Virus record (IMG/VR): IMGVR_UViG_3300048591_001244
Coordinates: 15,205-79,204 of that record
Direction: 5' to 3' (one strand)
DNA from: a virus
DNA length: 64,000 nt
Each line of letters opens with the position of its first letter. Position 1 is the first letter of the stretch. The notes beneath the pieces are model-generated. The model had not been told where the DNA came from. It saw only the letters and a list, made by a program, of their open reading frames with translations, and searched no databases. Positions 2 to 49,388 of the stretch are shown one piece after another. Made by a program: the position numbers and the translations under genes.

Positions 2-358
2 AACAAAAAACGTAAGTCGCCTTTCTACAACAAGATCATTAGGTCCCGTCATGGTAACAACGGCCACTGTTGTTCCGTCAACTAATTTAGCTCCCAATAC
101 GTTCTTGTCCAAAGTGAATTCTGTTCCGGAAGTTGACGGAAGCAATGATCCTCCACCATTATAAACACTAAAAGGCCCCAGAATAACACCATTGGACATT
201 TCAATACTTAACGTTGCTGCATCAAAATCCGAGAGTTCCGGATTAGGACTTCCATAGCCACCCGTATTATCAGGAGTTGAATAAACGCCCGTAGTATCTT
301 TTATTTTAAGTTCCGAGCACCCTAATGGGGTAAAATAAGCTTTAAAATTCAATGCCAT
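2..358 (-). CDS. Partial ORF running off the window (MALNFKAYFTPLGCSELKIKDTTGVYS...), probable virion/tail-associated protein
   Basis: ATG at 358 on minus strand, read by eye; DTTGxYxxxxNxGGYG start; co-oriented downstream of the virion RNAP. Confidence 0.55.
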   Translation of the reverse strand, partial: MALNFKAYFTPLGCSELKIKDTTGVYSTPDNTGGYGSPNPELSDFDAATLSIEMSNGVILGPFSVYNGGGSLLPSTSGTEFTLDKNVLGAKLVDGTTVAVVTMTGPNDLVVERRLTFFV

Positions 359-388
359 AACGTTGCTAAAATAAGTTATTTATAATTA

Positions 389-3300
389 CTATTTTTCTTC
401 CATGAACTTTTTTATCACTTTTTCCATTGGCAGAGTATTGACAACCATCATAGGAACCTTAGAATCTCCTTTTTTACCATATTTCGTGTCTTTCTCATAA
501 ACCAAAGGACCATAGAATCCATTTTCAGCCAATCCTTTCATCATTTTTAATGCATCAACAATGGTTGAGAAAACTGGCAGTCCACCCTGGAAGGTGTATA
601 TATAATTGTCAATGTCATAGACAACTGCAACATCACCCCACATACGATTTAAACTTGTATATGTTTCCTTATCATCATCGCCAAATCCGGCAATAAGCAT
701 AGATATCAAAAGCATCATTGTTGCCTCTCTTGCAAGCTTCCGAAGGTTCTCCTGATCCACTGGCTTGAGAGCATAGAACATCTTCTTTGCCTTTTCATGA
801 TCCTTTTCTTTTGCCAGAACCTCTAAGTACTTAAATGTTCCGCCACCTATATCTCCGACAGTTCGAACGATACCTTTGAGTTTTTTATCACTTGTTCCGG
901 CAAAGCGCTCTGACATGGCATGTACATCATAGATATCAAACATCCATGTTCGAAGTTGCATGATAGCCCGGCCCTCAGTAGTGGAAGCAGCAATCCTTTT
1001 TGCCAGACGGTGATACGAACCATGTATATCCTGAGCCTCACTGATAAGCTTGATAATCTGATCGGCTGTCATTCCTTTATGTCCATCTTTAACAGTTCCG
1101 TCATGTTTGTACGCATCCCATTGTTTTTGAGACATGCTACCGGCAATGGTCATAGAATGGTTAAAAAACTCAACAAATGCCGTTGGAGAGAATAAAAGTT
1201 GCTTTATAAATCCATAATTATCAGACGAATCTGCTGTTGTCCAGTCATGGTTGATTTCTAAGATTCTTTGCTGTTGCATGATATTGACGATCTTAGAATC
1301 CAAGAAAGCAGTTTTCCAATTTGTTCCTGGTTTAACACTTCCAAAGGTTCTCATTACTCCAATAAATGTTTTCCGGAAACCAAGATCCCTTACATTCTGA
1401 GTTATACCGCCGAATAAGTTCATCGTTGCGGCACCGAAATTCAAAGCCATAAATTTCAGCCCTGTATATTCAATCAGGAATTTTGTGACAATTTCAACAT
1501 TATGAGGTAATTTGCTCTCAGGCTTGATACCATACAACTGCCAATCATTCAGCTGCTTGATAAACCGAGCAACATTTTTTCCTTTAGCATTGTATGTTGT
1601 AGCATAGTTTTCAGTGAATTCCATCACTAAAAGATTGTCACCAAGAGCCCTGACAAAAGCACCTTGATGTAAAAAGTGCATTGCAGGGGTAAAAATATCG
1701 CGACTTCTTGTACCTGAATCCTCTTTATACAAACTATGGAACATAGATTTTGCATCAGTTCGTATAATAGGCTCATTAGCCGCATCCATTGGACTTGTGC
1801 TATCATACATCTTCCGGGCAGTTTCAGTAGCCTTACGCAAAGCTAAGTAGTATTGTCGCTTTGATTTTTTATCAGCACCACCAATTTTTTGCCTCTCCTT
1901 TAACGTTCTCTTATAATTTTTTAATGTTACCGGCTCGTCAAACTCAGGAACCATAATGTGAAGGCGATCGTATTTTGACTGGCCAAAAAACTGATGCATG
2001 AATGCAGTAAACCATCCCAGCTTTTTTGATAATTCAGTACCGGTTGCCTCAGCATAATTTACCTGGAACATTTTTTCTCCTGTTGCAATAACTTCCTTTG
2101 GAGCATAGTTATTTAACAGAGATGCATAAGTATCTGCAAACTCAATAATAGCCTTAGACTTTTCATCTGTCTTTCCTTTTAACTTTTGATAGTTTTCAGA
2201 AGCAGGATATCCCGGACCACTTGGATGAACAAAATAGAATACTGATGTATTTGTATCCATATCAGTCATCTCTTTCTTTGTAACTTTCAAATCCTTTAAT
2301 TTCTTATAAATAGGACTTAAAAGATGCTTGATTTCAGCCTGAGCATTATTGGCTTCAAATTCTGCGCGCTGGATAATCTGATTCCTCAAAGCAACAGCAG
2401 CACTGCCACTTTTTAAATGTGCCGCAAACGGAGCAATAACATTGTCCTTTCCAACCCAAGAATTATGTGTTGTCAAATCCTTCACATCTCTCGGATCAAA
2501 AATCTCATGGAGAGCCTTTATGAAAACTCTGTTCTTGTCATTTTTTGAATCAACTTCATTTTTTATTTCTTGAGTAAAAAGGTGTGCCGTAGCATACGAA
2601 GTAATGATAGTATCAACAGTATCAAAATATGCAAGGCTATCGCTTTTCATATTCATTCCACGACTGTTATACTTAGCCTTCAATCTGCTTAGATCATTGG
2701 CAATATCTACAGCTGCATCTTTGTCAAGAAGCTCTAATTTGCTTTCATCAGTATAACGATTAGAAAGAAGCTTTGCAGATTCAATCATATCACTCAAATA
2801 TTCTTGATATTCCTTTGTTACCTTTTTGGCAAGATTTTCATTTTCATCATTTTGAATCAAATCAATATACCTGATTCCAACCCTGTCTTTTGAAAAGGTA
2901 TCCTTATCTATCGGTCTTATCATTTGGAATCCTGGTTCCATCGCTCCTGCATATGGCACTCTTGCAAACTGTTCATTATAGACATAATCATTGTTTCCGG
3001 GAATAGGAGTAAACCCTGCAGCCATAATTTCAAATTCTTTCGAATCTGCCAGCTGAATTTGCTTTCCTGTAATCCTTTCTATTGCAGCCTGCCAAAAGTT
3101 TTGTGCTCCCCTACGAATGATCTCACTAAAGGCATTTCGGGTAATATCGGTATGCTCAATCTCAGAAAGACTCTTTATTTTATTCTCTCTCTTTTCATTG
3201 ATCTTTTTTATCAAATCATCAATTTTTTCCTGATGATCCTGAAAGACAGGACCGGTATTAGTCCTCTTCATGTAATTTAATGTGAGATTCCTAAAGTCCT

Positions 3301-6300
3301 GTTGAGCAAGTTCAGCATCTGTTCCTTTCCACATACGCTGAGCCATAATTTTAGCATAAAGGTCAGGAGAGGCATCTTTCCAGATCATTGCTCTCACCCT
3401 TGACCAAAAATGTTTCATCCAATTAGAAACCTTGTTAAACAATCCTTTGTTCTGAGATTCTAATTTTACTAATTCTGTTCCAGCCTTACCAATAGCATTT
3501 ACAGCCGCTTCCTCAGAGCCATAATGTGCAAGCAACTTCTTCTTTACAATATCACTATCAGGTAGCATAGCCCAGTAAATATGCGCGTGCTCATGGAATA
3601 TAGCTTCTTGGTGAGGCGTGTTAGGATTGATCCAATAGGCATCACCGATGGAAGCACCCCAGGCATTCATGTCAAGCTTCTTTCCCGGAGCGATGACATC
3701 AATGACTCTCTGGAACTCTTCTGCAGAGAAAGCCTTGACATGAGGGAATAGCTTAGCAAACTTTTTACGCATGATCTCTATCTGCTTAGGATCTGCAGAA
3801 GTGATAGGATCTTCATTCAGATTTTTTGGGCCAATTGTATCTTCAGGGAAATCAATTTGTGACTGTCCTGTAGTCGGTGGCGGTGGAAGATTTAAAATAG
3901 CATTAAGCTGAGCTTCCCAATTAGGATCAGCCATGTTTATAACAGGAATTCCTTTACGAGAAGCCATTTCATTTGAAGCTGGCCTATTTAAAAATGGAGA
4001 AGCACGCATAACCTCATTTGATAGATTTACTGATTTGTCCTTTTCATAATAGAAAATATCAACACTATTCCATTTGTATTGTATAGTCTCTTTTTTGCGC
4101 TCGAAAATATTATACTTTCCTTTTCTGTTTTCATCCTTGATCTTAACAAAATAAGGAAGTTCATTTATATTCTCTCCTGCCTTGTTCTTAACAACATATT
4201 TTCTGGAAGAAGGAATATCCTTTCCGTTGATAACAACTCCAGCATAAAGGGTGTCAAACTCAGGAATTAATTCAGGATTATTTATCAAGATATCCCTTGA
4301 AACACTTGTTGCTCCATTAGTAGAATTTAAAAATGAAAGACCTTCAAGTTTTGTCTTTACATCTTTCAATGTCTTGTATGGAAGTATCTCATAGAAAGAA
4401 CCTGACCATGGCGCACTTCTCCATCCAAATTCACTAACCAAATATTTAATCAGCATATTCAGATCAGAATCAGGAAGCTCCTTCATCTTGTCTTTCGCTA
4501 TTTTCGAGTAGCCAAAATCATCAACATTCTGTTTAGCCTCTTCACTAAGTTCAACTCTCTCATTGACCAGACTGAATGTTAAATATTTTTTCACAAAACT
4601 ATCTTCTGGAAACTTTTCAAGCCACTGAGCCACATCATCTTTTAAAGATTCTTTTGACTCTGTGACATTCATAGCTTGAAGCATCAAGAACTTATCAAAT
4701 TCATTGTAAATTAAATCATACTGATCTTTTTTTAAGTTTCTTATTCTTTCTTTCCATCCTTCTTCATTGTATGGATTATCAATCAATGACAGCTCTTTGG
4801 CAATTCTATATATCACATGCTGTCCAAAATTTGTTGAAATTGGGTGTGTAGCATAATAAGACCCTGAAATAGCCCTATTGATTTTTGCTCTCACAAAAGA
4901 ATCAGAATTGATCATCTCTTGAACCTGACTGTGATTGATAAAACGCAATGGCCTTGAGCCTTCCTTTGGAAACATAATCCGATCATAAGCATGCTTTCCT
5001 TCCATGTACTCTCCATAAGAAAGAGGTCCAGAGGTTGTAAGCTTTAATATCTTATTGATCATCTGTATCTCACTGGAAAGCTTATTCATGGCACTAAACA
5101 TTCTCACAATTTTAATCTGAGATGTTATTGAATCACTTTCCATATCATAATCATACAGATCTGGAAGTCTGTTCTTTTGTAAAACCCAAGCATTGCTATA
5201 AAATTCTTTTTGTTCTTCTGTTAATGACTCACCCATTGTTTTAGGAGAGATCATAGCAAGGACAATCTTATCATAAACATCATCACCGTTTCTTCGATTA
5301 CTGACTGAGGTAAAATGTTCATATAATTCAATGAACTTCTTCATTCCCGGAGTATGCATAAATGCAGTAAGACTATCTTCAATCTCAGCATCCAGTCCTA
5401 ATAAAGCATCATATTGTCCGGCAGTAGAAGAGAACTTATTCATCATTGACAGCGTACCATTTTTGACAGCATCGGCAGCATGATTCAAATGAGCGTTCAA
5501 TACAGAAAACAACTTTTCTTTTTCTCTTGATTCCAGCCTGTTCTTTTCTTCCGTATGAGCACGACCAAGCTGACGAACAAGAGCTTCATCTTTTACAAGT
5601 TTATTATCTTCATTGTAATAGAAATATTCACTTTCATCCTCTTGATTCTTTTCAATCTCTACATAATAGTTCTTCCCTTTAAACTCAAAAGAATTTATTG
5701 TGTCCTTATCAACTGTTCTACCCCATCCGGTTAATAGGAATGGAATCTTTTCCCATGTTCTTGACTCAGTATTGAATTTGGGGAAACGAATCTGAGTAGA
5801 TAAGTTAATATCATTTGAAGCTAAATTATAAACAACCTTCAGTGCAGAAGCAGTAATTGATATGACATCCTGAGAATCTAAGTTAGCTCGAACCATCTTA
5901 TTCCAGCTACTCGGCATCAACGGATCAAGATTCTTTCCTTCATCATAATACGTTTCCAGATATTCTTTCTTCTCTGCAATAGTCGTCTGCTCAGTAATAC
6001 GATTGAACATATGAGGATCTTCATACGTTTCTTTCATCATTTCAAAGATGCTGTTCATCCGGGACTCATAACTAGAATCCCCTGCAGGAACTTCTTTTCC
6101 TGCCTTGTTCTTATATGGAGCCCAAAGGAATACTGTATCACCATCATGGTCTGATCCGGAATAAACCTGAATTGCGCCATCGGTAACAATAGTATTTTTC
6201 ATTGTCGGCGGTAAAAACCCTGCAACTTTAACATAAGAGAAGGAATTCAAATCACCGGTAGGTACGCGAATAATAAATAATCCTTCACCTTCTTCAAAGC

Positions 6301-9300
6301 CATTAGGGTTTTCATCAGACTTCATTGCCGAAGCAGGAAGGTAAACAACAGGACTCTGTACCTCATTTTTCTCTTTGTCAAGCTTGATATGACCTAAATT
6401 CTGTCCTATTACCTTTCCATGAACATACTGAGCCTTTAGTACAACAAAGTCAAGGAGTTTTTTTCTTACCGCGTTCTTCCAGTACTTGTTTACAATTCCA
6501 CGAACAATAGGATCCTGCATTGTTATTACAGACTGCTTGTTCATTTCTTTCAAGGCCATAACATCATCACTCTTTGGATTGATAGTCATGAGCCATTTTA
6601 TAATATCTTCCCCGCTCTTATTTAATACCTCTTGAATTTCTTTTTCTTTTATTAAAGAAGCTTCAGAGAATAATTTATCAATCGCTGCTTTATGCTTTGT
6701 AGACTTTAAAATGTTCAATATCTGAGTAGGAAGGGAACCAAGATTTAACAGACCTTCATTTGTAAGATCAAGTATGACACGGAAATCATCATTCTCAATG
6801 TCTATGTATTTTGGTGCCTCTTTACCAAAGTCAACTTCTTTAATATCCGGACCGCTGGTAGTCCATTTCCAGTCATTGACATTTTCCTCTCCTGTTATTT
6901 TTGTTCCTGACTTAAATGCAATCCTGTCAATTCCATGTTCTTTAGCATACTCAACAATCTTTTTTGCCATTGGATTCTGTGCATAAAAGATCTTTCCTTC
7001 CTCAGTATGTAAATGAGGATACACAACATCATTAGCTTTTATTAAATGCTCTGAGCCATTGATATGAGTATATGTGAATGCTTTGATAACGCCTGAGTAC
7101 ATTCCACCGGAACTTATTTCAATCTGGTCATTGAACCAAGGCATCATAATATCACCGCCATCAGGAAGCTCAACTTCCTTGTTCCATACTCCAATGTCAA
7201 TAAAGACCTTTGGATCATTAACAATCATCACCCTGTGCGTTTTACCTATTCCTCCAGGTAATCCTTGCAATAAAGTAAGTCCCATACCATGTATCTTCCT
7301 TTTGATAGACATGGCATATGAAAGCTCCCGATCATTCTTACCTCTGAAATACTGATCAGTGTGATACTTGTTGTAAATGTGATTGTAAACAAATTCTTCG
7401 GCAAATTCTCTTGAAGATACTCCGGGATCTGTCATGAACTTTTTGGCAACAAAATTTTCAATCTTTTTTTGCCACATTCCAACTTCCTTGTTAATAGCTT
7501 CAGAAGACTGTTTTGCAGTAGTCTTATTTCTTTTGGCGTGTAACTTGCGTATGCTGTCCTTCTGAGCAGTGGTAAGATTTCTTAACCTCTCAACAGGGAT
7601 CATAATCTTAGTGGAGCTATCGGCCTGCTGATCCATTGTAAAAAGATAATTACCCTTTCCTGCCATATGTTCTTTATCAGAATGCATAAAATTGGCAATG
7701 AGCATAATGTCAAAATCAGTACTGTTTAACTTTGACCTCTCTTCTGCAATATTGGTATCAGTATTTTTTACTCCATCAAGCTTAAAGAATTTAATGGAAT
7801 CTTTAAACTTTTGGAACCACGGATTATCCTTGTACAGTTTTCTTATATCTTCACGCTTAGCTCTTTTTCCCTGATTTGTAAGAAAGCTATCATATTCTGT
7901 AGAATCCTGATTCTTACCGGTAGCAGTAGTAAACCGTTTGGCAACACCAAGATTTACTGAATATTCAGCAAAGTGCCTTGAGATTGTATCAAGCTGAGAT
8001 CCCTTCTCTCCAACTCCTTCATAATAATCTTTTATTGCCTTTGTACTTGTTAAAGCCCTTATGCGACGAAGTTGGTGATAAGATATTTCAGTAGCGTTGT
8101 CTGCTGTTGGAAAAGCTGTCTTTCCTCCAAATGACTGACCATTTATAATTCTATTAGCCAAAAATCTTTCATATGTTTCAAAGCCTTCTTTCTTTGAATA
8201 GTATCTTAAAAAAGCTTCCCACTGACCTCTGTTTTTATGCTGATCAATACCGGTTATCCTCTTCGCTGTTTCTATATCTGCATTGATAAGATCAGCAACG
8301 AAAGAAGATCTGGTAAGAGCATCAATCAAATCTTCCTTTTTTGCAGCCCAGTCAATACCTGTTACATCAGACTTCTTATTTAATTTGCTGATAACATATT
8401 GCCAATTAAAATGCGTTTTAGCATTTGCTCCGAATTCTTTTTTCAGCAGTTCAATTAAATCCTTGTTTTCTTCTCGAATGAATTTGTCAAGAGCAATTAA
8501 AATCTTAACTTTCTTTTCGTCATTATTTTGAAGAATAGAACGTATTTCAGTTATACTTATGGAAGCAAGTTTTTTTGCAAGGGACTCTCTGTTCTCTCTT
8601 TTAATCTGTGGCTTAGTGTACCTTGCATTTGATTGTAATGGAACAAATGGCCCTTCATTAGAATTAATGTATAGCAGGTTTACAAAGCGCTGAGAGCTTT
8701 TGTAATGGTTTCTCAAGCGAACAAATCGGTTAAAGTGAAAATCATCTTGGTCTCCATTTCTCCAAACTTCTGCCATTTCTCGAACAGGAAAGAAGTCAAT
8801 AAAATACTGCTTGACATCAATTTCATCATCAGGCATCTGATCGACAAGATCTTCTGCCATCTCCATCAATTCATTCCTGGTATATTCACCAACATAAGGA
8901 AGGCTTGTGTTACTATTTATAAATAAACCATATAGCTTCTTTTCATTTTCTGCAAATCGATCTTCAGAATCTGAAAGATTGGCCATCTTTGCAGCTTCAA
9001 TTTCATCACTCCAACGTGCCTGAAGAACAGGATCATTATTAACATATTCAGCAATGATAGGATTTCTGATTTCTGTTTTTGAACCATACAAAGCTTTCAA
9101 GCTTATTGTCAAATCAGCTTCTTCTCCTATTGTAAGTTCTTTTCCTGTTTCTTCCCTGTGAAGTTTCTTTGCTTCTATGATAACCCGATCAATTGCATCA
9201 TCGGCAAGTTCAAGCCTTCTCTCTTCTGTAATTTCAATGTTCTTGCTTTTAAGAATACGTAATCCTTTTAGGTAAAGATTATAAGTAAGGTCTAAGAGGG

Positions 9301-27973: not shown

Positions 27974-29440
27974 TTAATTTGGTGACATATTGATTATTCC
28001 ACAGCTTGTTGTGTTGTAAATATTGATCATGTCCTGCTTGAGCATTTCATAAGCAATAGCATCAACAGAGTGGAGAACCTGTCCGTCGGCCCCTGTCAAT
28101 CCATTAAGGTATGCTTCAACCATTGAACGGTTGATACCATAGGCTCCTTTGGTGACGATCTCAATGTTCGGAGAAGATATACTTCCCGGATCAAGAAAAA
28201 CGGCCATGTTTCCACGGATCAACTCACCATTGGATCCACGCTCATACCATTTTTCTTCATCATCCCAGGCAACGTTCTTGCAAAGGATAACTTTGTTTCC
28301 GTTGATATTGAAAGTATCAAAGTTTTGTCCAACTTCAATATCTCCACCACCAACAGAACCACTAGAAGATCCACTATGAGTAACGTTTCCGCCCAATTGA
28401 TTAACCCAGTAATCGCGGAAAAGATTCTGATAGTGAGCATAACCATCGGTACCTGTTACCATGTACCAGTAGTTATTTGACGTTTTGTTCGAACGCTTCT
28501 CGAGCGTCTTCATCATGTCAGTTACATCATCAATGGTAGATTTACCATCGGCACCGGAACCAAAGTGCTCATTACCACCTTCGATCAGGGGAAGAACACC
28601 GTCACCACGGACGATCTCTTTTCCTGTACCCGGATCGATTTCCAATGAACGAGAAAGAAGCTCACCTGCAGAATTCTTCATAGAAGAAGTTCCATCCCAT
28701 TTGGCGTGCTCATTTTCCATCATAAATTGGATACGAAGCTGAATCTCTTTGGTGTACTTCCATCCTTTTGTATCACCGGCAACATACCATGTTACATCAG
28801 TCAAAGCATCTCCTGTCAAGGACATACCTTTACGCTGAGTAGTCATATGCTGGATGAACTCAGAAGGGAAGAATGATCGGCTGTAACCTCTCAGTGAAGC
28901 CTCACCATAAGAAGTGTATGCTCCAAAAGCAAAGGATTCACCAATCGGGTGAAGGTGCGTTGCAGAGACAAACAGCTCATTCGGATTGTGGAAAGTGTAA
29001 TTGTATCCACCGGAAACTTTTGTAGGGTTGCCGGAAACGCGAGCATAGAAATGATCACGATAGAACTTTACCATCTGTCCAGGATACAGCTGACTGTCTT
29101 TCATCGTTAAGATGAAATAGCCATCAGCAGTAGTTGTTCCTACCTGAGCAATAACGGCAGATTTCTTTTGGATACGACCTTGCACCTTGTAGCGCATAGC
29201 CTGATCACCAATGGCTTTACCATCAGGAATCTTTCCGATTTTTGTTTTAATTGCAGTGGTATCTCCTGTACGAAGATCCCAAGGGGTGCGAGCACCAGAA
29301 ACGATCATTGTAGACAATGTTCTTGCATCGGCATACTCAATGACGTCGCGCACAAAGGGCTTTTTTGCCGCATTCTGCGTAAGGCTATTGGATGTTGTAC
29401 ACGAATCATCCCAACTGCCCTGAATAGTTTGTATTTTCAT
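27974..29440 (-). CDS. Major capsid protein (crAss-like HK97 fold)
   Basis: 488 aa; follows portal and scaffold, has its own terminator; YGEASLRG, RKGMSLTGDA and VTGTDGY motifs. Confidence 0.85.
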   Translation of the reverse strand: MKIQTIQGSWDDSCTTSNSLTQNAAKKPFVRDVIEYADARTLSTMIVSGARTPWDLRTGDTTAIKTKIGKIPDGKAIGDQAMRYKVQGRIQKKSAVIAQVGTTTADGYFILTMKDSQLYPGQMVKFYRDHFYARVSGNPTKVSGGYNYTFHNPNELFVSATHLHPIGESFAFGAYTSYGEASLRGYSRSFFPSEFIQHMTTQRKGMSLTGDALTDVTWYVAGDTKGWKYTKEIQLRIQFMMENEHAKWDGTSSMKNSAGELLSRSLEIDPGTGKEIVRGDGVLPLIEGGNEHFGSGADGKSTIDDVTDMMKTLEKRSNKTSNNYWYMVTGTDGYAHYQNLFRDYWVNQLGGNVTHSGSSSGSVGGGDIEVGQNFDTFNINGNKVILCKNVAWDDEEKWYERGSNGELIRGNMAVFLDPGSISSPNIEIVTKGAYGINRSMVEAYLNGLTGADGQVLHSVDAIAYEMLKQDMINIYNTTSCGIINMSPN

Positions 29441-29465
29441 TTCTAAATTAGATTAGGAGTTAAAC

Positions 29466-30734
29466 TTAACGTCCTGATCTGGCCTCTTCTTCTTTTGCTA
29501 GTATTTCGCCCCAAGCATCAAGCCCTTTTGCCGTCTTCTTGTTAACAGAACTTTTGCTTCCGGTTTCAAGACCTATATTCTTAATCTTGTTAAGAACCTG
29601 CTTTCTACCTTCGTCACGCTTTCCGTTACCAATTAACGATGGTAACTGATTTTGGAACTCTAAAAACATTGCAATCTGAACTTCCAATTCGGGATTTTTG
29701 GTAAGCATAGCTTTGTAATATCCCTTTTCGTACTTTTTCTGAAGCAACGCTTTATCTCGTTCAGCAATTGGAACCCCGAAAAATTCTTTGGCTTTGCCCA
29801 AATTTTCCTTAAAAGTCTTTGCTTCTGCTAAACGATCACTTTCTTGTTTTTCTTTTGCTCTATTTATTTTTTCTCTCGCTTCTGAAATCATCGATTCCTC
29901 ACGAGAAGCTTTTCCGTTTTTTAATGCCTGACGAAGCATATCTGCTTCAAGGTCAAGCTTTCCGTCAACGTCGAAACTCTCAACAATCTCTTCGGCTTTC
30001 TCTTCCGGGAAGTTCTTCAAAAGAAGATCCTTCTTTACAAGAGACCTATTATCAAGAGCAAGATACTGATCAAATATTTTCAGCGGATTTAAGAACGATT
30101 CTACCGTATTTCCTTCTACTGAAAGAAAATCATAAAGTTTCTTAGCATCCTCCGGAAGTTTATCAAGAGCCAAATTCTGTCCTTCTTCAACACCAGCAAG
30201 GCGCTCAGCCTTTTTCGTCTCTTCAAGCCTTACCTTAAAAGAAGTGAAATTATCATCTTCCAATTCTCCCAATCCGGTTTCTTTGGCAATCAATCCCCAG
30301 GTAGATTCTTCTACCGTTTCTGCTTCTGAAGACTCTTCAAGGTCTTTAACCTCAAATTTAACTTCTCCATCATCGTCATCTTCTCCTATATCTTCTATTG
30401 CAGGAGCCTTCTTTTCAAGATCAGGTTTCTTTTCTTCCTTTTTTTTCGAATCTTCCTTTTTTGCTGCTCCGGCCTCGATCTCTTCCATTGTTGTTCCATC
30501 GGGAAGATCTCCAATGTCCTTTGCGCTTTTGAGAGCCTTTTCAGGATTGACAAAAGCTTCAATGGTTTGCTCGGTCTTTTTTTCAGATGCAGCTGAATTA
30601 TCATCTGCAGATTCTGTTGATACGGTAGTTTCAATTGCCGGTTCCCCGCCTTCCGCTGCTGCCGTTACTCCCCCGCCCGTAGAGTCTCCGGCATCTGAGC
30701 CTGAGTCTGGACTTCTGTGAAATTTGAACTTCAT
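29466..30734 (-). CDS. Putative scaffolding protein
   Basis: 422 aa, very acidic N-terminus and coiled-coil C-terminus, between portal and MCP. Confidence 0.65.
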   Translation of the reverse strand: MKFKFHRSPDSGSDAGDSTGGGVTAAAEGGEPAIETTVSTESADDNSAASEKKTEQTIEAFVNPEKALKSAKDIGDLPDGTTMEEIEAGAAKKEDSKKKEEKKPDLEKKAPAIEDIGEDDDDGEVKFEVKDLEESSEAETVEESTWGLIAKETGLGELEDDNFTSFKVRLEETKKAERLAGVEEGQNLALDKLPEDAKKLYDFLSVEGNTVESFLNPLKIFDQYLALDNRSLVKKDLLLKNFPEEKAEEIVESFDVDGKLDLEADMLRQALKNGKASREESMISEAREKINRAKEKQESDRLAEAKTFKENLGKAKEFFGVPIAERDKALLQKKYEKGYYKAMLTKNPELEVQIAMFLEFQNQLPSLIGNGKRDEGRKQVLNKIKNIGLETGSKSSVNKKTAKGLDAWGEILAKEEEARSGR

Positions 30735-30766
30735 GATTTTTAGTTTATGATTTATTAATTAGAAGC

Positions 30767-31072
30767 CTATTGCTTCATTCCTTCGATTGTATATCCTGTC
30801 ACGGCCAACTTTCCCGTGTAAGAATCGCCCTTCTCATTATCAAGAAGTTCGTTTCTTAACAGTTTTACAGTGATTTCCATCTTATACTCTTGTCCAACTT
30901 CAAGAGTTGCAAGTTCAGGAATTTGCGTACTGTTAATATGAATCATTGGTCTTCCATCAGGAACATCCCAGGATTCTTTTGGCAATTTTGTCGTTGAATC
31001 AATCTTGCGAAGATCTGTTTTAAGCAAAACAGGAACTTTTAAATTATTTTTCATAGCTGTAATATTAAGCAA
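30767..31072 (-). CDS. Hypothetical protein
   Basis: 101 aa ORF in the operon between portal and scaffold. Confidence 0.5.
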   Translation of the reverse strand: MLNITAMKNNLKVPVLLKTDLRKIDSTTKLPKESWDVPDGRPMIHINSTQIPELATLEVGQEYKMEITVKLLRNELLDNEKGDSYTGKLAVTGYTIEGMKQ

Positions 31073-33308
31073 TCATTTGTTGTTGTGGCTGTTGAGGCAT
31101 TCCTTGAGCCCCATCCATAAATTGTGCACCCATCATACTATACTCATTCATAGCTTCTTGGTTGATTCTTCCTGATTCTAAAAGATGCTTGAGAATTTCC
31201 ATGAAAGCTTTGAATTTGCGCTCTTTATCAAGCTCTCCATCTCTGGCCTGAACCTGCTGACCTACCATCTGTTGTTTAGCTTGATTATCTCTCTCAGCCT
31301 GTTCTGCCTGATTTTTTTTAATGACTTCCCATCCGTTACGGGTAATGGCAATAGCTTCGTCAATAGTTTCTGACAGGGCCGCTTCCATCGCATCGACAAC
31401 GCGCATTTCCCCGGCATTGATCGCCTGTGGGAACCAGAGTTGCATCATCTGACGAATATCCCCTTCTTTCCGGCCATCAGTTATCACTGCATCAAAATCA
31501 TCCAGGGAAAGATTTTTAATCTCTTCCAAAAAGAGAGCACCCTTGTCACCAAGTAGTTGCTGAGCTTCTTTATGATGGAAATTGCCATATGTTATCTGAG
31601 CGGCCTGAAGTAATTTCCTGACAACCATCCGGACAAACTGATGATTCATGTGAAATAAATATTCCGTAGAAGTACGTGAAACTTGTATCTGATTTACCGC
31701 ATTGGTAGCAGTCATGGATGCAGGGGTCTGGCCCTGACGAGAATTTGACAATCCGGTAAGCAGATCTGTCGTAGCTTCCAAATTCTGCTTTAAAGCAATC
31801 AAATGTTGAAAGCTATTACTCAGTCCAAGATCAAATTCTTTTAAGAGATTCCCTACCAAGTTCCCGTTGGCAAGCTGAGCCGCATCAGAGGAAGAGTCCA
31901 CGTCAATGATTCCATCATTGATCATTCGTAACAACATCTTTTCCATTGTATTATTACCAAGAAAAGCTCTGTCATAAACAATAACCTTACCTTTTAACTT
32001 GTTCAACTCTCTACGAATCTGGAGCATGGTAATGTTGTACAATTCGGAAACATGGTCAAGAGTATTGAAAATTGAAATTCTTGTTCCGTCATGAGTTTTG
32101 AAAAGAAGACCGGTATAAGAATATTCAGACAAAAAAGGATTCTGAACCGATCGTGGCTGATTGGGTTTTACTCTAATATTTTTGAAAATGCTTTTGCCAA
32201 TTCTGTATCCTTCCCAGACATATGACAATTCGGTAGCTGAAGCTTTTATCTTTCCGTTGGAAACCTTGCTTTTGAACCTCTCTCTTTCAGTAGAGTCCAT
32301 CTTATCAAGGTCCATCATCTTGTAATAAGTGGCACCTGTTTTTGACGGAGATTCTTTTATGTACAAAGTATCAACAGCTCTCCATTCAAGATGGTATACT
32401 TCAATGCCGCCATCTATTCCAACATCTTTCTGGCCGGTATTGGTGCTGATCGTTGCAGTATTACTTCTGTTTTCTTTAATCTCACTTTTCAACTGCCTGT
32501 ATTCTTCAGCGGTAAGATCAAATCGATTCATGATATCGTGCATGAAAAGAACTTCACGCCTTCCGATGTATGGAGTTTTTTGCAGGAAAGGATCTTTTTT
32601 AGATTCCTCAAACAACATATCACGAACATCACACTCCCGGACCCGGGTGTATCCGGCCTTGTCGATCTCTACCTGAATAAAAGCTTCAGAACAAATTACC
32701 TGGTCAGAAAAGGATTCAGCAAGTTTGCTCCAAATATCTTCGATTTCCATTACCTTCCGAAGAAGGATCTGCATGATATGAGTCGTTCTTCTCTTTCCTG
32801 AAAGAAGATCAAAGATTTTATCATCATCTTCTTGCAATGGTTCCATGCCTTCTAAGACTGGAACTTCTGCAGATCTGAGTTTTTGTATTTCCGGGGCTGC
32901 GTGTTTTAATCCTACCTGAAAAGCATAGTTTTCGAAAAGCTCACTCTTAGCATCAGGGTTAACACTTACAACTCTATCAAATCGTTCTCTTCCCAGCCAC
33001 TCACCAACCAATAGTTCAACCTTTGTACGCCCCAACCGGTAGTCATTGTAACGGACCAACGCATCACCTCCGTAAGTGCTGTTGATATGTTTGTATTTCT
33101 GCTCGTTAACAAGTCCATTGAAATCATTGTAAAGCTTGTTGATTTTTGTCAGCTGCTCCTTTCGAACAGAGTTAAATCTTGCAATAGCATATTCTATACA
33201 TTGCTGACCAAGATACTTCTGGTACTCCTGTATAGACATATCCTTCGGCGGCTTCTCATACATTTTGAAGCCTGGAAAATAATCCGGAACGCCAGCATCT
33301 TTTAACAT
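31065..33308 (-). CDS. Portal protein
   Basis: 747 aa after terminase; KVELLVGE, VWEGYRIG and LTGLSNSRQGQ motifs of crAss portals; Q-rich tail. Confidence 0.88.
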   Translation of the reverse strand: MLKDAGVPDYFPGFKMYEKPPKDMSIQEYQKYLGQQCIEYAIARFNSVRKEQLTKINKLYNDFNGLVNEQKYKHINSTYGGDALVRYNDYRLGRTKVELLVGEWLGRERFDRVVSVNPDAKSELFENYAFQVGLKHAAPEIQKLRSAEVPVLEGMEPLQEDDDKIFDLLSGKRRTTHIMQILLRKVMEIEDIWSKLAESFSDQVICSEAFIQVEIDKAGYTRVRECDVRDMLFEESKKDPFLQKTPYIGRREVLFMHDIMNRFDLTAEEYRQLKSEIKENRSNTATISTNTGQKDVGIDGGIEVYHLEWRAVDTLYIKESPSKTGATYYKMMDLDKMDSTERERFKSKVSNGKIKASATELSYVWEGYRIGKSIFKNIRVKPNQPRSVQNPFLSEYSYTGLLFKTHDGTRISIFNTLDHVSELYNITMLQIRRELNKLKGKVIVYDRAFLGNNTMEKMLLRMINDGIIDVDSSSDAAQLANGNLVGNLLKEFDLGLSNSFQHLIALKQNLEATTDLLTGLSNSRQGQTPASMTATNAVNQIQVSRTSTEYLFHMNHQFVRMVVRKLLQAAQITYGNFHHKEAQQLLGDKGALFLEEIKNLSLDDFDAVITDGRKEGDIRQMMQLWFPQAINAGEMRVVDAMEAALSETIDEAIAITRNGWEVIKKNQAEQAERDNQAKQQMVGQQVQARDGELDKERKFKAFMEILKHLLESGRINQEAMNEYSMMGAQFMDGAQGMPQQPQQQMIA

Positions 33309-36571: not shown

Positions 36572-37350
36572 TATAATGGAAGTTGTCTGCGTTGTGATCT
36601 TTGCTTTTCAATAGCAGCTTTTCTTTCTTCAGATTTTAATTGAGCAAGTTTGCGAAGGTCATCATTTCCTTCCAGAACAGATTTTATCCTGGAAAGTTCC
36701 ATGCCGAGCCACATCTTTGCTTCTATCAAGGCAAGCCATGAAGTCTGTACAAAGATCCCTTCAAAGTTATGGTCCTGATAAGCATCAATGATCGTCTGAA
36801 TAACACTACGAATTCTCTTAACTCCCGATGTTTGAGAAAGACCATTTTCATTAAAGATATGTCCATCTACAGCCTCAGCTGTCGGTTCGATCTTTTTTGA
36901 TTCCGGGTTCATGCTTTCCGGATATAGATTCTCCTGATCCAGTTCCTTTAGGCGCATGTCAAGGAACATTTTTGCTTTTTCAAGGTTTGTAAGTGCCAGT
37001 GACACTTCTCGGCTGGGATTTAAAACCTTCACTGAGTTCATCAGCGCGTGAATATCCCTTCGTATAATTCGTATTCTTTCTGTTTCTACTACCATAAGAT
37101 TTTGATTAGCGTCAAGAATTACTGATTCACTGTTATTCTCCGGATGATCATCATCGTCATCATCATCAAAGTGAGACCCCTCTTGATAATCGTAATTTTC
37201 ATTACTTCCAGAACCATCATTATCTTCAACGACAAGTTCAATGTCACCAAGTTTGAAAGGCTCCTGTGGAACTTCTTCCAAAGGACTGCTTTCAGGAGAT
37301 GGTTTAATCAAAGGCTTCTTGCGAAAAACCCCTTTTTCATTTTCACTCAT
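36571..37350 (-). CDS. Protein with two Acb2/Tad1-like helical-hairpin repeats
   Basis: SREVSLALTNLEKAKMFL and VQTSWLALIEAKMWLGMEL segments; acidic N-terminus. Confidence 0.5.
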   Translation of the reverse strand: MSENEKGVFRKKPLIKPSPESSPLEEVPQEPFKLGDIELVVEDNDGSGSNENYDYQEGSHFDDDDDDDHPENNSESVILDANQNLMVVETERIRIIRRDIHALMNSVKVLNPSREVSLALTNLEKAKMFLDMRLKELDQENLYPESMNPESKKIEPTAEAVDGHIFNENGLSQTSGVKRIRSVIQTIIDAYQDHNFEGIFVQTSWLALIEAKMWLGMELSRIKSVLEGNDDLRKLAQLKSEERKAAIEKQRSQRRQLPL

Positions 37351-37362
37351 TTTTTTTTAGTT

Positions 37363-38142
37363 TTAAAAATAGTTAGTAATTGACGCTTGGTTAAGCAGCG
37401 TCTGAGCTTCGTGTTTCAAGTATGGAATGGGAATCTTCAACCAAAATACTGGCTCGTTTTTTTCCATCGCTTCTAAGTTTATCCAGATCAAAGATAGTGT
37501 TCCTATCCGATATCCGTGTTCTTCCATCATCGCAGCATATAAACTTTGCTGTATAGCATACCGGGTGTACTTATTATCGACAAGATGATCAATCGGTGGA
37601 TACATCCAGGCACTGTACTGATAAACATTCTCAATACCCTTCTTATTGGTCTTAAAATCTTCAATATGAAGGATTTTATTCTTTGGAGATTCCAAAATAG
37701 GAACGTCCATTGTTCCGGCAACCTGAGCTTTTTCAGAATAAGCAATGACTTCCGTATAGCATTGGTAGTAATTAGAGAAGATTCCTGCCAGCCGGCGGAT
37801 TTGCTTCTCCCACTGAGGTTCTGTTATCTGTCCTGAGCCAATGTAATCTTCCATTGCATTGTGAAAGATTGTTCCTCTGTCTGCAGCATCCTGACCGCCT
37901 TGCTTCCATTGCTCCTGTAACTTTTTTGACTCCCTGTTGATCGATGCTGTTGTTATTGCTACACCATCAGCTTTCATCTTTTTAATGGCGCTACCTACAG
38001 AAGCTCCTTTGGCATCAAAGGCTTTGTAATACTGAGCAAGTAATTTGCTTACCGATATGTATCTGGTACCATCCTGATGATAGTACTGATGCTCCGGATC
38101 TTTACGGTGAACTTTATTTGGAAATGGATTAAGTGTATTCAT
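37363..38142 (-). CDS. PD-(D/E)xK (Cas4/lambda-exo-like) nuclease
   Basis: YISVSKLL, RGTIFH, AGTMD...IEDFKTN and YAIQQSLY motifs. Confidence 0.85.
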   Translation of the reverse strand: MNTLNPFPNKVHRKDPEHQYYHQDGTRYISVSKLLAQYYKAFDAKGASVGSAIKKMKADGVAITTASINRESKKLQEQWKQGGQDAADRGTIFHNAMEDYIGSGQITEPQWEKQIRRLAGIFSNYYQCYTEVIAYSEKAQVAGTMDVPILESPKNKILHIEDFKTNKKGIENVYQYSAWMYPPIDHLVDNKYTRYAIQQSLYAAMMEEHGYRIGTLSLIWINLEAMEKNEPVFWLKIPIPYLKHEAQTLLNQASITNYF

Positions 38143-38154
38143 ATCATCATCGAT

Positions 38155-38745
38155 TTAAGTCTTTTCTCTTCTTACAGGCCCTCCAAAAGAATTTAGATTT
38201 TGCAATCGAGTAGTTTCATCTATCTGATTCTTATCAAGAGGATGCATTCCTTGCTTCGGACTAACATATTGATCATCATAAACCAAAGGAATTACAATTC
38301 CGCAAATGAGCATATTGTAAACAGAATAATGAAAATCTTCAATTCCCCTGCTTAAATCTGCATGCCTTTGAATTGAACTTGCTCTTTCATCAGTAGCAAC
38401 AAAACTCTGAAAGTAAACAGCATACCATTTGCCATCAGTATGCTGTTTCCTTAAATAACTCTCAATATCTATACCACCAGCTTTATTATAACCAACATGA
38501 ATCTTCGGATAAATAGCCTTCCCTGTCAGATCAATCTCTATAGGAATACTCTCACTTTCAACTTCAATAGTCAATGGCCCTTTTTTCAGGGGACACTTTT
38601 TCGGGATAGTATCCAACATTAATGGATCCAATGTATTTTGATAAGATCCTGCATTTTCAACATTTGGGTGGCTACACTCATACTGCTCTCCATGAAATAA
38701 GAACAGACAGCTTCGGCAGTTTTTTACTACTAATTTATTTTCCAT
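38155..38745 (-). CDS. Hypothetical protein with N-terminal Cys cluster
   Basis: CxxC...CxH...CPL motif. Confidence 0.55.
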   Translation of the reverse strand: MENKLVVKNCRSCLFLFHGEQYECSHPNVENAGSYQNTLDPLMLDTIPKKCPLKKGPLTIEVESESIPIEIDLTGKAIYPKIHVGYNKAGGIDIESYLRKQHTDGKWYAVYFQSFVATDERASSIQRHADLSRGIEDFHYSVYNMLICGIVIPLVYDDQYVSPKQGMHPLDKNQIDETTRLQNLNSFGGPVRREKT

Positions 38746-38868
38746 AATTTTTTTTTCTAACTCTTTTGCATTGGAATATGGAGTTATTTACAGTTCCGGA
38801 AATTTTGACTTTAAATAATTCGTAGCCTCTAACCAACGTTCTTCAAAAGTATATTTCTTTGACATAAT

Positions 38869-39039
38869 TTATTCCTCCAGTAATTGTTCTATAGATTTCC
38901 TGCAGAGATAAATCTCATTGACCTCAGACTCCCCTGATTCAATTTCATCCCTGCAGAGCTGTAATAAGTCAGCCACTTCCTGACCATGTTCCGGGTATTC
39001 ACTTACAAACTCCCGGGCAAATTCTTCTAACTGTTCCAT
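38869..39039 (-). CDS. Small acidic hypothetical protein (56 aa, MEQLEEFAREFVSEYPEHG...)
   Basis: Read by eye, below the ORF-track cutoff; A-rich leader. Confidence 0.55.
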   Translation of the reverse strand: MEQLEEFAREFVSEYPEHGQEVADLLQLCRDEIESGESEVNEIYLCRKSIEQLLEE

Positions 39040-45012: not shown

Positions 45013-45146
45013 TCTCGTTGCGGTTCATTAAGCAGAACTTTCAATCGAAGCAAGGTGTTTTTAATCTTTTTTTGTGCGGTGGTCAAAAAAATATCAACAT
45101 TGAAAATCAGCACTTTAGAGATAATAATACAAATAAGTGAAAAATA

Positions 45147-45190
45147 TTTGTAAAAATGCTTGGTGGTTACAAATAAGCGGCTTATATTTG
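45147..45190 (+). promoter_or_regulatory. Bacteroidota sigma70-type promoter inside cassette 2
   Basis: TATATTTG (TAnnTTTG, -7 box) at 45183-45190 with TTG/TTTG upstream. Confidence 0.55.
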
Positions 45191-45221
45191 TACTGTCATT
45201 AACAATCAAAATAACAAGAAA

Positions 45222-45647
45222 ATGAAAAATTTAATCAAAAACACAATCATCAGACAAGCAATCGAATTAGGTTTTGACTTTGAACAATTCACTAACGATG
45301 CAGATTTGCAAGAAGTAAGCGAAGCACTTATGGACTTCTTTAACGAAAATTCAGACAAGTTGCCAAAACTTGAAGATGCGTGCGAAGTAACAAGCAACGG
45401 AAGAACACAACACGTAAGCTATGGCGATTTTTGGTCTGATGGAGAGATAGTTAATTTTTCAGACAACTGGCACAAATCACCTGAAACAAAAGTTTTTCAC
45501 TCTGATTTTGTAATGGAAGATACTGACGGATTGATGAAAAATATGAACTTGTATTATTTAGTTGGCGAAACTGATTACAACGCACCTGACGGCTACTATT
45601 ACAGCAAAAGCGAAAAAAGACACGTAAAAGAAGAAGAAAATGCGTAA
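45222..45647 (+). CDS. Cassette 2 cargo, hypothetical protein
   Basis: 141 aa, A-rich leader, follows a promoter. Confidence 0.65.
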   Translation: MKNLIKNTIIRQAIELGFDFEQFTNDADLQEVSEALMDFFNENSDKLPKLEDACEVTSNGRTQHVSYGDFWSDGEIVNFSDNWHKSPETKVFHSDFVMEDTDGLMKNMNLYYLVGETDYNAPDGYYYSKSEKRHVKEEENA

Positions 45648-45855
45648 GATTTTTCACTTAGAAATCAAATCGGAAAGCTCCCATAAATACTACGGGAGCT
45701 TATCCGCTTTATGCTCTGAAAACCCAAATTTGGGTATTTCAAAATTCACACTTGACAGATTTGATTTTACAGAACCTTTTGAAAATGCAACTTGCATTAT
45801 CCGAAAATCAGTAATGAAAACTACTGGAAGCGTGGGAGAAAAAGTTAAATGGTAA
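45640..45855 (+). CDS. Cassette 2 cargo, small putative DNA-binding protein
   Basis: 71 aa, YYGSLSAL...LGISKFTL; overlaps the previous stop. Confidence 0.55.
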   Translation: MRKIFHLEIKSESSHKYYGSLSALCSENPNLGISKFTLDRFDFTEPFENATCIIRKSVMKTTGSVGEKVKW

Positions 45856-48501: not shown

Positions 48502-48653
48502 CGCTAACAAGCTGGTATGTGCTGTGCCAGCCACAAAATTAATAATCACGGCACTAACTTAACAGGCATAGCATATACCGTTTTCGGGCTTGGCGTTCGG
48601 TTTTGTGCGTAGGGCTTGTGGGTGGCAAAACTGACGCAAAACCCGTGTTATAT
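48502..48653 (+). repeat. Two fused attC-like hairpins H6a and H6b with no cassette between them
   Basis: Arms 48514-48528/48565-48579 and 48585-48605/48626-48645. Confidence 0.7.
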
Positions 48654-48743
48654 GAAGGTGGGATTTTCACGCACTACACTCGATTAGAAGCACGTAAAAA
48701 GAAAAAGAAAAAATGAGCGTGGGAAACAATTAAATCATTTAAA

Positions 48744-49241
48744 ATGCAAAAGAACATTTTATTATTTGACGTAGAAAGCACAAGTTTACACGGAACAGGA
48801 TTTGCCGTTGGTGCTATTGTAGTAAACAGAGGCGGAACAGAACTTGACCGATTTGAACTATTAAGCAAGGAGGGGGCTGAAAAAGCAAATGGTTGGGTTA
48901 AACAAAATGTAATACCTAATCTTTCTGATATGCCGACTTGCGAAACAGACAAAGAGCTTCGGGATGCTTTTTTCAACTTCTACGTAAAGCACAAAGAAAC
49001 GGCAGAAATTTGGAGCGATGTAAATTTTCCAGTTGAAACAAACTTTTTACACGCTATTGTAAATGATGCTCCGACAGAAAGAGAATGGTCAATGCCATAT
49101 CCCTTGTTTGATGCTTCAACATTAGTAGATGTAAGCATTGACCGATGTGCAGAATGTGGAATTGATGGATTGAGAAAGCACAACCCACTTGATGACAGCC
49201 GTGCAAGTGTTTACTTTCTTTTGAAATCATTGGGTCACTAA
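48744..49241 (+). CDS. Cassette 7 cargo: DEDDh-type 3'-5' exonuclease-like protein
   Basis: LLFDVEST (ExoI) and KHNPLDDS (ExoIII-h) motifs. Confidence 0.75.
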   Translation: MQKNILLFDVESTSLHGTGFAVGAIVVNRGGTELDRFELLSKEGAEKANGWVKQNVIPNLSDMPTCETDKELRDAFFNFYVKHKETAEIWSDVNFPVETNFLHAIVNDAPTEREWSMPYPLFDASTLVDVSIDRCAECGIDGLRKHNPLDDSRASVYFLLKSLGH

Positions 49242-49388
49242 ATCATTTGAGCGTGGGCAGATTTTTTCTTTTTCTTTTTCCCGAAAGTTCAATCGAAGCA
49301 CTCCTGCCCACTTTCATATAACAATATATATCCGCATCTGCAAAATAAAACTACCGAATAATATTACTAACGATTAATATCCAGACCC

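Follow-up and report, generated by a model that had tools for sequence, protein, structure and literature searches.

Cassette C7 is a gene-sized unit in a 64,000-nt stretch of viral DNA, hereafter the window, which runs from base 15205 to the last base (79204) of an IMG/VR virus record; that 79,204-bp record is complete and has direct terminal repeats. Together with cassette C2 of the same window, a degraded relative, C7 appears to represent what we call a cassette shell, in which two non-coding half-modules of about 97 nt (5') and about 81 nt (3') surround a payload gene. On the coding strand the two halves are predicted to pair into a bipartite stem, composed of an outer GTT/AAC repeat with a fixed G.T pair at position 11, an internal loop that bears a box on each side, and an inner purine/pyrimidine helix of 16-21 bp. 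A G-rich motif, GWGCGKTGGS, referred to below as the core, would be the conserved border of the shell toward the payload, left and right alike, and the left core would sit in a ready-made translation start made of an A-rich leader and an ATG or GTG. The anatomy of the shell, the co-variation of its arms, the many payloads per shell, the presence of one payload in several shells and the positions at which similarity breaks off were all observed directly. In our estimation there is an even chance that the shell blocks are a conserved structural and expression module whose portable homology lets co-infecting phages swap genes. The structure occurs widely and has more parts than an earlier note on the window described; that note had proposed C7 and C2 as carrier cassettes with an inner GCG(G)TGG insertion site accepting payload genes.

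The inner arms of C7 (48696-48714 and 49261-49279) form the longest perfect inverted repeat of the window among arms up to 1.5 kb apart. None of 40 shuffles preserving local composition reached its 19 bp, the shuffle maxima being 12-17. The two flanks pair with each other more strongly than shuffled flanks do (z = -5.1 under RNA and -6.5 under DNA folding parameters), and when the whole cassette is folded, its minimum-energy structure contains 49 flank-to-flank pairs. All the strings given in the earlier note, including the 19-bp inverse and the TGAGCGTGGG and TAAATCATTT direct repeats of C7, were located at their coordinates in C7 and C2. We can add that a 16-bp outer GTT/AAC inverted repeat (GTTATATGAAGGTGGG/CCCACTTTCATATAAC) belongs to the same C7 structure and that the 13-mer TTCAATCGAAGCA, present both at 45040 in C2 and at 49288 in C7, is a family-wide box. 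In related contigs conservation begins precisely at the outer left repeat (48647), and in the near-identical contig L003 the neighbouring sequence departs immediately after the AAC of C7. The ATG at 48713-48715 opens a vestigial 6-codon frame, MSVGNN followed by a stop (48713-48733). A scan for sigma-70-type promoters and intrinsic terminators, whose consensus does not cover Bacteroidota or phage promoters, gave none at the arms or cores.

Three further features of the C7 structure were considered and set aside. Pairing of the right core with the outer right repeat (GTGGGCAG/CTGCCCAC) is good in C7-type shells and reaches just 5 bp in methyltransferase-type shells, so it was not regarded as general. 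On reading of the sequence, the two cores are not complementary to each other, and no consistent set of four G-runs was found for a G-quadruplex.

The contigs that carry the shell derive from metagenomes of activated sludge, wastewater and aquatic environments. Of 80 matches to the right-hand box, about 50 were true relatives. The C7 right junction was recovered from 5 IMG/VR contigs and 34 true metagenome contigs, two more metagenome matches being chance hits in unrelated DNA. Matches to the left-flank pattern were mostly chance A-rich sequences, and only L209 was taken from that scan. By blastn the C7 region had no match among 50,697 phage genomes, and a methyltransferase-type cassette searched in phage genomes matched only within coding sequence. 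Rfam holds no family for C7, the sole match (E = 0.25) lying inside the ORF (open reading frame).

The payloads found between C7-type flanks fall into 11 automatic groups, two pairs of which are divergent versions of each other, leaving about nine distinct types. They comprise the exonuclease-like ORF of the window, a pair of small ORFs, ThyX with DUF3310, a methyltransferase-like protein, an Rv2179c-like exonuclease that is unrelated by BLAST to the window's 165-aa ORF, and several proteins of unknown function. Logan contigs from a sludge/biofilm run illustrate such a replacement, as they depart from the window at 48726 and 49248, in agreement with the Rv2179c-like payload. In all C7-type shells the core is identical at 10 of 10 positions on the two sides and adjoins the arms whatever the payload. 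The alternative payloads that the earlier note had looked for between C7 or C2 flanks do exist, in IMG/VR, metagenome and Logan contigs, and the outcome it had named as contrary, that the flanks never carry another gene, does not hold.

The same organization was observed in a sister family of shells. Its left flank, GTTATAGGCAGTAGGG-ATTTTTAGCAGAATG-TTTAATCGAAGCAC-T-AAAGAAAAAAAAGAAAAAA-core, and its right flank, core-TTTTTTCTTTTTTTTCTT-CCACAAATG-TTGAAACGAAGAAC-GTCTG-CCCTATTGCCTATAAC, are almost invariant, and similarity starts exactly at the GTT and ends exactly at the AAC. Across 32 double-stem cassettes these flanks stay near-identical around at least seven payload families that are unrelated by BLAST. 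N6/N4-type DNA methyltransferases make up the largest group, in which the median pairwise identity is about 31%; a DPPW-type methylase, a cytosine-5 methylase-like protein and another family, of four members, are among the rest. The inner arms vary by lineage (AAAAAGAATTTAAAAAA, AGAAAAATTAAAAAAAGA, GAAAAAATTAAAATAAAAAAA, AAGAAAAAAAAGAAAAAATGC and the arm of the window), with perfect complementarity within each cassette, and this co-variation takes in the start codon (ATGC/GCAT versus AAAG/CTTT). Because the arms differ between lineages yet remain perfectly complementary, arm pairing is selected or continually renewed.

Some shells also contribute to the encoded proteins. N-termini can be donated by the shell (MSEG, MREG, MRSEG), and some ORFs read through the right core and arm, giving unrelated proteins a common shell-encoded tail. 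Such tails, carried by unrelated methyltransferase-type proteins, read FLNSFS(N/D)ENV (e.g. FLNSFSNENV) or ...ECGGSFFNFSNEND, and also ERGLFLF. Hidden coding in the right flank was rejected on hand translation of the sister shells, where the frame shifts with the variable length of a T-run.

The converse arrangement, one payload in several carriers, was seen with the C7 gene itself. Its 165-aa product has no Pfam match, and its FDVES and HNPLDD motifs suggest a putative DEDDh exonuclease fold. Homologues at 74% identity lie in two other shells, GTTATAGGTAGTTGCTT-TGCGTTGGC...GTGCGGTGGG-TAAGCAATTACCTATAAC and GTTATAGGCTGTATTTAAAAGTTTT-GAGGGAAGG...GTGCGGTGGC-AAAAAACTTTTAAATATTGCCTATAAC, so that the exonuclease-like gene occurs in three different shells, and in both of the others a G-rich motif adjoins the stem on each side. 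The TAAATCATTT repeat near the two ends of the gene was not seen with other payloads of the C7-type shell, and an AAATCAWT(T)AAT-like pair likewise lies near both ends of the exonuclease-like gene in the L005 shell (2955-2975 and 3480-3505). These pairs may be a payload-specific microhomology and a trace of gene capture. A more distant homologue (39% identity), with a GGAGG ribosome-binding site, lies at 2900-3720 of L013, a 59-kb viral contig, between flanks GTTATAGAGTTAATTA ... TAATTAACTCTAAG, which form a similar inverted repeat with a different right end.

The core was examined across 63 distinct shell types, of which 19 carry it in a flank (13 on the left, 13 on the right, 7 on both sides). 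These 26 sense matches compare with 2 antisense matches and 3 in interior windows, and per kilobase the motif is about 10 times as frequent in flanks as in interiors. The enrichment inside such cassettes that the earlier note had anticipated is therefore present and strand-specific. It emerges only across related cassettes: within the window alone the 9-mer is not enriched (7 matches at up to one mismatch, 4.0 expected). A Chi-like hotspot was rejected as its main role, the motif not being enriched across the phage genome. The right motif lies 0-8 nt past the payload stop codon, and the left one overlaps the start codon used by many payloads, as in ATG AGC GAG GGA (MSEG), GCG ATG G, or GC GTG GGG with a GTG start. 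In C7-type shells the ATG of the left core is often ATA, ATC or AAG while GCGTGGG stays, and because the ATG is often lost while GCGTGGG is kept, the motif is conserved for its own sake. An upstream reading frame was rejected on the same ground as the reason for the left core. In two shells, L209 (cassette 86-684, minus strand) and L212, the short frame starting in the left core ends as TAATG over the payload start codon, an overlap that suggests possible termination-reinitiation coupling in some C7-type shells. Left and right cores are also identical at 10 of 10 positions in L092 (GCGTTGGCAA), and agree at only 4-8 of 10 in many other shells. The motif travels with the shell and not with the payload, and is no random duplication.

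Junctions were analysed on one representative per automatic payload group, anchored on the cores. On the right side, mean pairwise identity is about 0.3 up to the core and leaps to 1.0 at its very first nucleotide. On the left side, values of 0.5-0.75 persist over some 22 nt beyond the core, and background is not reached before the payload ATG; between carriers, left similarity runs 14-25 nt beyond the motif to the payload start codon. Two leader variants are each common to unrelated payloads, and because the leader between core and ATG is shared in this way, it is the ATG, not the core, that marks the left junction. Similarity therefore breaks at the core on the right and not on the left, where the shell-borne leader continues. 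Mosaic shells were also found: L227 has the arms and outer repeat of a C7-type shell together with a right box of the methyltransferase type, and in the L071 cassette at 7016-7914 the left arm belongs to one lineage and the right arm to another, with poor pairing. Such chimeras show that recombination also takes place within the flanks.

No shell without a payload was detected in 1.8 Mb of related loci (two regular-expression searches) or among the 39 C7-type right junctions, and the 8 matches to a gapped pattern in IMG/VR were all chance matches in unrelated coding DNA; absence of an empty shell from databases is not proof. Of the two arrangements for which the earlier note had proposed a search, flanks with another payload and flanks with none, the second was not encountered in the loci or among the IMG/VR and metagenome matches. 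Neither a tyrosine recombinase (PF00589) nor a serine recombinase was found in the complete 79-kb phage, and no tyrosine recombinase in four other contigs with C7-type shells (two of them complete) or in Polaribacter phage P12002L. The proposal of a second, dedicated recombination tier with GCG(G)TGG as its crossover core is not supported, because the left junction does not coincide with the core, mosaic shells exist, and neither an empty site nor an enzyme is in view. The cassettes do not correspond to terminal-inverted-repeat transposons or miniature inverted-repeat transposable elements either: inverted repeats are present, but outside the GTT/AAC lie unrelated hairpin ends and no duplication, and the terminal repeat sequence differs from cassette to cassette.

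Between the cassettes, 47 elements fold in an attC-like manner between AAC and GTT, as imperfect palindromes with unpaired spacers and bulged bases. Their common grammar is AAC, a 5-nt spacer (often GTTTT), a stem of 3-4 bp, a bulged single base, a long stem that begins GCTTKGCG..., a loop that varies, 1-2 nt and GTT. Of the two strands, the coding strand gives the more stable fold in 38 of 47 hairpins (p about 7e-7) and in 30 of 30 shells. Wobble pairs place the G mainly in the 5' arm, opposite a T in the 3' arm (72 vs 10). The wobble count made in the terminal repeats was set aside as circular at position 11, where the cassette finder demanded G/T. The hairpins are not co-inherited with either neighbouring cassette, since the same shell and payload can be preceded and followed by different hairpins. 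With a single G|TT crossover the attC would travel with the upstream cassette; breaks were found instead at both AAC| and |GTT. No integron integrase was found beside the array, which a complete integron needs and a cluster of attC sites lacking an integrase (CALIN) does not. The same style of cassette surrounds three DNA methyltransferases and a Mom-like gene in the cultured siphovirus P12002L (NC_028924, L258), where the cassettes' own repeats measure 23-30 bp and a pyrimidine arm with GAGCGAGGG stands ahead of the gp38 methyltransferase. The coordinates of all these features are collected in Table 1.

Table 1. Features of cassettes C7 and C2 in the window, with examples of related elements in other contigs (L numbers)
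Feature	Position	Strand	Remarks
Cassette C7	48647-49322	+	676-nt unit; bipartite shell around payload
Outer left inverted repeat GTTATATGAAGGTGGG	48647-48662	+	GTT cassette boundary at start; position-11 G opposite T on right
Left box TCGATTAGAAGCAC	48680-48693	+	Internal loop between outer and inner stems; variant of family-wide box TYAATCGAAGCAC
Inner purine arm AAAAAGAAAAAGAAAAAAT	48696-48714	+	Doubles as A-rich translation leader
Left G-rich core TGAGCGTGGG	48714-48723	+	Overlaps ATG 48713-48715
A/T-rich leader, core to payload ATG	48724-48743 (20 nt)	+	Part of shell; holds left TAAATCATTT copy
TAAATCATTT direct repeat	48731-48740 and 49239-49248	+	Copies near both payload ends
Payload, exonuclease-like 165-aa ORF	48744-49241	+	Weak PHROG 'RNase H' match
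Right G-rich core TGAGCGTGGG, then CAG	Core 49248-49257; with CAG 49248-49260	+	6 nt past stop codon
GTGGGCAG complementary to CTGCCCAC	49252-49259 and 49303-49310	+	
Inner pyrimidine arm ATTTTTTCTTTTTCTTTTT	49261-49279	+	Perfect complement of 48696-48714
Right box TTCAATCGAAGCAC	49288-49301	+	Same orientation as left box
Outer right inverted repeat CCCACTTTCATATAAC	49307-49322	+	AAC cassette boundary at end
C2 left shell	45040-45082	+	Box TTCAATCGAAGCA 45040-45052, pyrimidine arm TTTAATCTTTTTTT 45060-45073, core GTGCGGTGG 45074-45082
C2 right shell remnant	45829-45849	+	Core AGCGTGGG and degraded purine arm AGAAAAAGTTAAA; within 3' end of ORF 45640-45855
Inter-cassette hairpin, window	48509-48646		
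Inter-cassette hairpin, L033	2941-3051		
Inter-cassette hairpin, L093	4884-4968		
P12002L cassettes (L258)	29150-32290 and 37190-38960	-	
Shared shell-encoded tail, L014	880-913		
Shared shell-encoded tail, L179	Cassette 1212-2183		
Shared shell-encoded tail, L023	Cassette 284-1143		

C2 had been described as having the same layout as C7. Its strings TTTAATCTTTTTTT-GTGCGGTGG (45060-45082) and AGCGTGGG-AGAAAAAGTTAAA (45829-45849) and the shared TTCAATCGAAGCA are indeed in place, and the layout is loosely the same, but the polarity of the arms is swapped and the right side is degraded. Because its arms are imperfect (12 of 14 with one gap) and its right half lies inside a 71-aa ORF (45640-45855), C2 is a degraded example of the shell in the window; the PHROG alignment of that ORF ends at residue 62 of 71. 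In a relative on a public contig of run X1, homology begins at 45040 and departs at 45834 into a long purine arm after the right core. Pyrimidine-left shells like C2 were also found in L016, L065, L063 and L092, as well as ahead of gp38 of the Polaribacter phage. A public activated-sludge contig has 336 unrelated letters in place of 45193-45638, the C2 141-aa ORF, and keeps the C2 leader region and the downstream 71-aa ORF, a gene-level replacement inside the cassette. Upstream of the 141-aa ORF, two palindromic sites (TACAAATAAG..N..TATTTGTA) at 45128-45152 and 45168-45192, 40 bp apart start to start, look like operators or a promoter region carried within the cassette.

Large virion genes, including a 4509-aa ORF, occupy the minus strand across bases 1-42000. 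From about 43000 small genes line up on the plus strand, and beyond them lies a replication module that encodes a DnaB-like and a ResIII/DEAD helicase.

How the shells work can be read in several ways. If the shell blocks serve as portable homology, co-infecting phages would swap payloads by homologous or microhomology recombination within them, much as proposed for the PeSL motifs of T4-type phages. The stem and cores would then have a putative structural or regulatory role, as an extended attC-like hairpin of single-stranded DNA or as a 5'-3' panhandle of the mRNA; the cores would not be the crossover point of a dedicated enzyme, and the shells would be layered on integron-like (CALIN-type) phage cassettes. 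Several points weigh against this reading. General recombination does not account for the same 9-10 nt at the two inner edges, nor for the initial close fit of every new ORF, whose stop lies 0-8 nt before the right core; the role given to the core is putative only; an A/T-only stem closing a loop of 500-900 nt is weak; and sequestration of the start codon would seem contrary to early expression of methyltransferases. The model of the earlier note does account for the twin edges. It takes a payload-free hairpin with the loop TGAGCGTGGGCAG as a site-specific insertion target, into which a host recombinase would insert a circular payload carrying one core, so that the core is duplicated. A perfect 10-nt direct repeat adjoining both arms in all C7-type shells with any payload, core-like motifs next to the stem on each side in about 12 shell types whose stem sequences are unrelated, the right variability junction exactly at the core, and an orientation that is always direct and sense (26 flank matches vs 2 antisense at the level of shell types) are all consistent with it, and a phage lacking the enzyme is no obstacle if the host supplies it, as for attC clusters without an integrase. 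We nevertheless consider this model unlikely. No empty shell was seen in the 1.8 Mb of loci, the IMG/VR pattern scan or the 39 C7-type right junctions, the left junction is displaced to 14-25 nt past the core, many shells have unlike left and right cores (e.g. GAAGCGAGGG vs GTGCGGTGGG), payloads have no core-like or arm-like ends of their own, and chimeric shells exist. In a reversed version, an attC-like palindrome (right half, hairpin, left half) would insert at a GCGKTGG beside a gene and duplicate the target, turning an ordinary gene into a cassette. The cores of the circular form would be direct repeats bracketing one continuous imperfect palindrome, left cores resemble the 5' strand of the hairpins (TTTGCGATGG in both, for example), and the payload bounds are tight to the ORF. 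Yet one core consensus is found across shells and does not depend on the target (similarity across shell types equals that within a shell), no payload gene was found in a single-core pre-insertion context, a shell-borne leader separates the left core from the gene, and the hairpins are not co-inherited with either neighbouring cassette, which together make this version very improbable. Stated more generally, the shell could be a dedicated gene-capture device in which a host enzyme, or a phage enzyme so far overlooked, recognises the hairpin loop or the inner edge GCGKTGG, so that arbitrary ORFs become part of a prefabricated cassette that is both mobile and expressible, or, equivalently, could arise by insertion of a palindrome that duplicates GCGKTGG; this has a small chance of being right. 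Gene capture and cassette genesis taken together are doubtful, and draw what weight they have from the twin 9-10-nt edges and the tight fit of the ORF.

Alternatively, the shell could be purely an RNA device, a 5'-3' panhandle of the transcript serving stability, RNase III processing or as a translational timer that hides the AUG, with the cores as contacts for proteins or ribosomes and the modularity of the DNA a by-product. The systematically better folding of the coding strand, the bias of the wobble pairs, the start codon within the co-varying stem and the short upstream frame that overlaps the payload start as TAATG in some shells all argue for it. Set against these, contig similarity breaks exactly at the GTT, the AAC and the payload edges, which is a DNA-level pattern, no Rfam family matches, the upstream ATG is not conserved in C7-type shells, and no terminator or promoter consensus lies at the arms in a scan whose consensus leaves Bacteroidota and phage promoters aside, so that we judge a pure RNA device quite unlikely. 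Finally, the arms are low-complexity A/T runs and the 9-mer is not enriched within the window, as would be expected from coincidence in an A/T-rich intergenic region. That no shuffle attains the 19-bp repeat and that dozens of independent contigs have the same structure with compensatory changes refutes chance, to which we give practically no weight.

The payloads are mainly DNA methyltransferases, with ThyX and exonuclease-like genes, i.e. kinds of genes used against host restriction and for nucleotide supply. Because the payloads serve these functions, the shell resembles a plug-in socket for counter-defence and auxiliary genes that otherwise dissimilar phages have in common; the phages that carry it or related cassettes include the 79-kb phage with the 4509-aa ORF, complete phages of 36-39 kb and the cultured Polaribacter siphovirus. 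If gene capture were the mechanism, the shells would offer a visible route for building integron-type cassettes; the origin of the recombination structure of cassettes is a long-standing open question, and integron-like clusters in virulent phages have been reported only recently. The mechanism is open to bench testing because the cultured phage P12002L carries related cassettes.

Shells share traits with several known systems of gene exchange. In the pdif modules of Acinetobacter plasmids, genes lie between inversely oriented 28-bp XerC/D sites and a host recombinase moves the modules. Like them, shells are gene-sized modules bounded by inverted sites, on an element that itself has no recombinase; unlike them, each shell has its own repeat, in which only GTTA, position 11 and a few further bases are fixed, whereas pdif sites have a defined sequence and are shared by neighbouring modules. 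The start codon and short frame of a recombination site also help to express cassettes that have no start signals of their own in class 1 integrons, through ORF-11 and the translation initiation region of attI1. The A-rich leader and ATG or GTG of the shell do the same for many payloads; attI is, however, a single platform site that is not part of every cassette, and it does not pair with a 3' partner.

In classical integrons the bottom strand of attC is the active strand, and we know of no nested inner site, with a second stem and a direct-repeat core around the ORF, in classical attC. Closer to the present case, regions of P12002L have been classed as CALINs, in virulent phages, and one attC of this phage recombined with attI1 under IntI1 (PMC9892861). 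Both the CALINs and the arrays studied here are same-strand arrays of small genes, often DNA methyltransferases, with imperfect ...AAC / GTT... hairpins in phages without an integrase. The shells differ by features that are not described for the former (PMC9892861), namely 14-30-bp terminal repeats proper to each cassette, a second inner stem, boxes, G-rich cores and a shell that accepts many payloads. Moreover, hairpins of the window type are not co-inherited with the upstream cassette, and the coding strand is the better folder in the shells and hairpins studied.

The PeSLs of T4-type phages are conserved non-coding motifs with stem-loops, located in plastic regions on either side of small ORFs that vary; the motifs mark the breakpoints of insertions, deletions and replacements, and exchange has been put down to recombination between motifs without a dedicated recombinase (PMC2839356, PMC4122927). 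The shell motifs likewise flank variable ORFs, and replacements break at them. PeSLs are direct repeats of one promoter-plus-terminator unit placed between genes, whereas the C7 flanks are mutually complementary, enclose the gene and have an added direct-repeat core and a box, and the host range differs, the shells occurring in Bacteroidota-type phages. The PeSL system is the closest counterpart to the shells for motif-bounded swapping of small genes without a dedicated enzyme.

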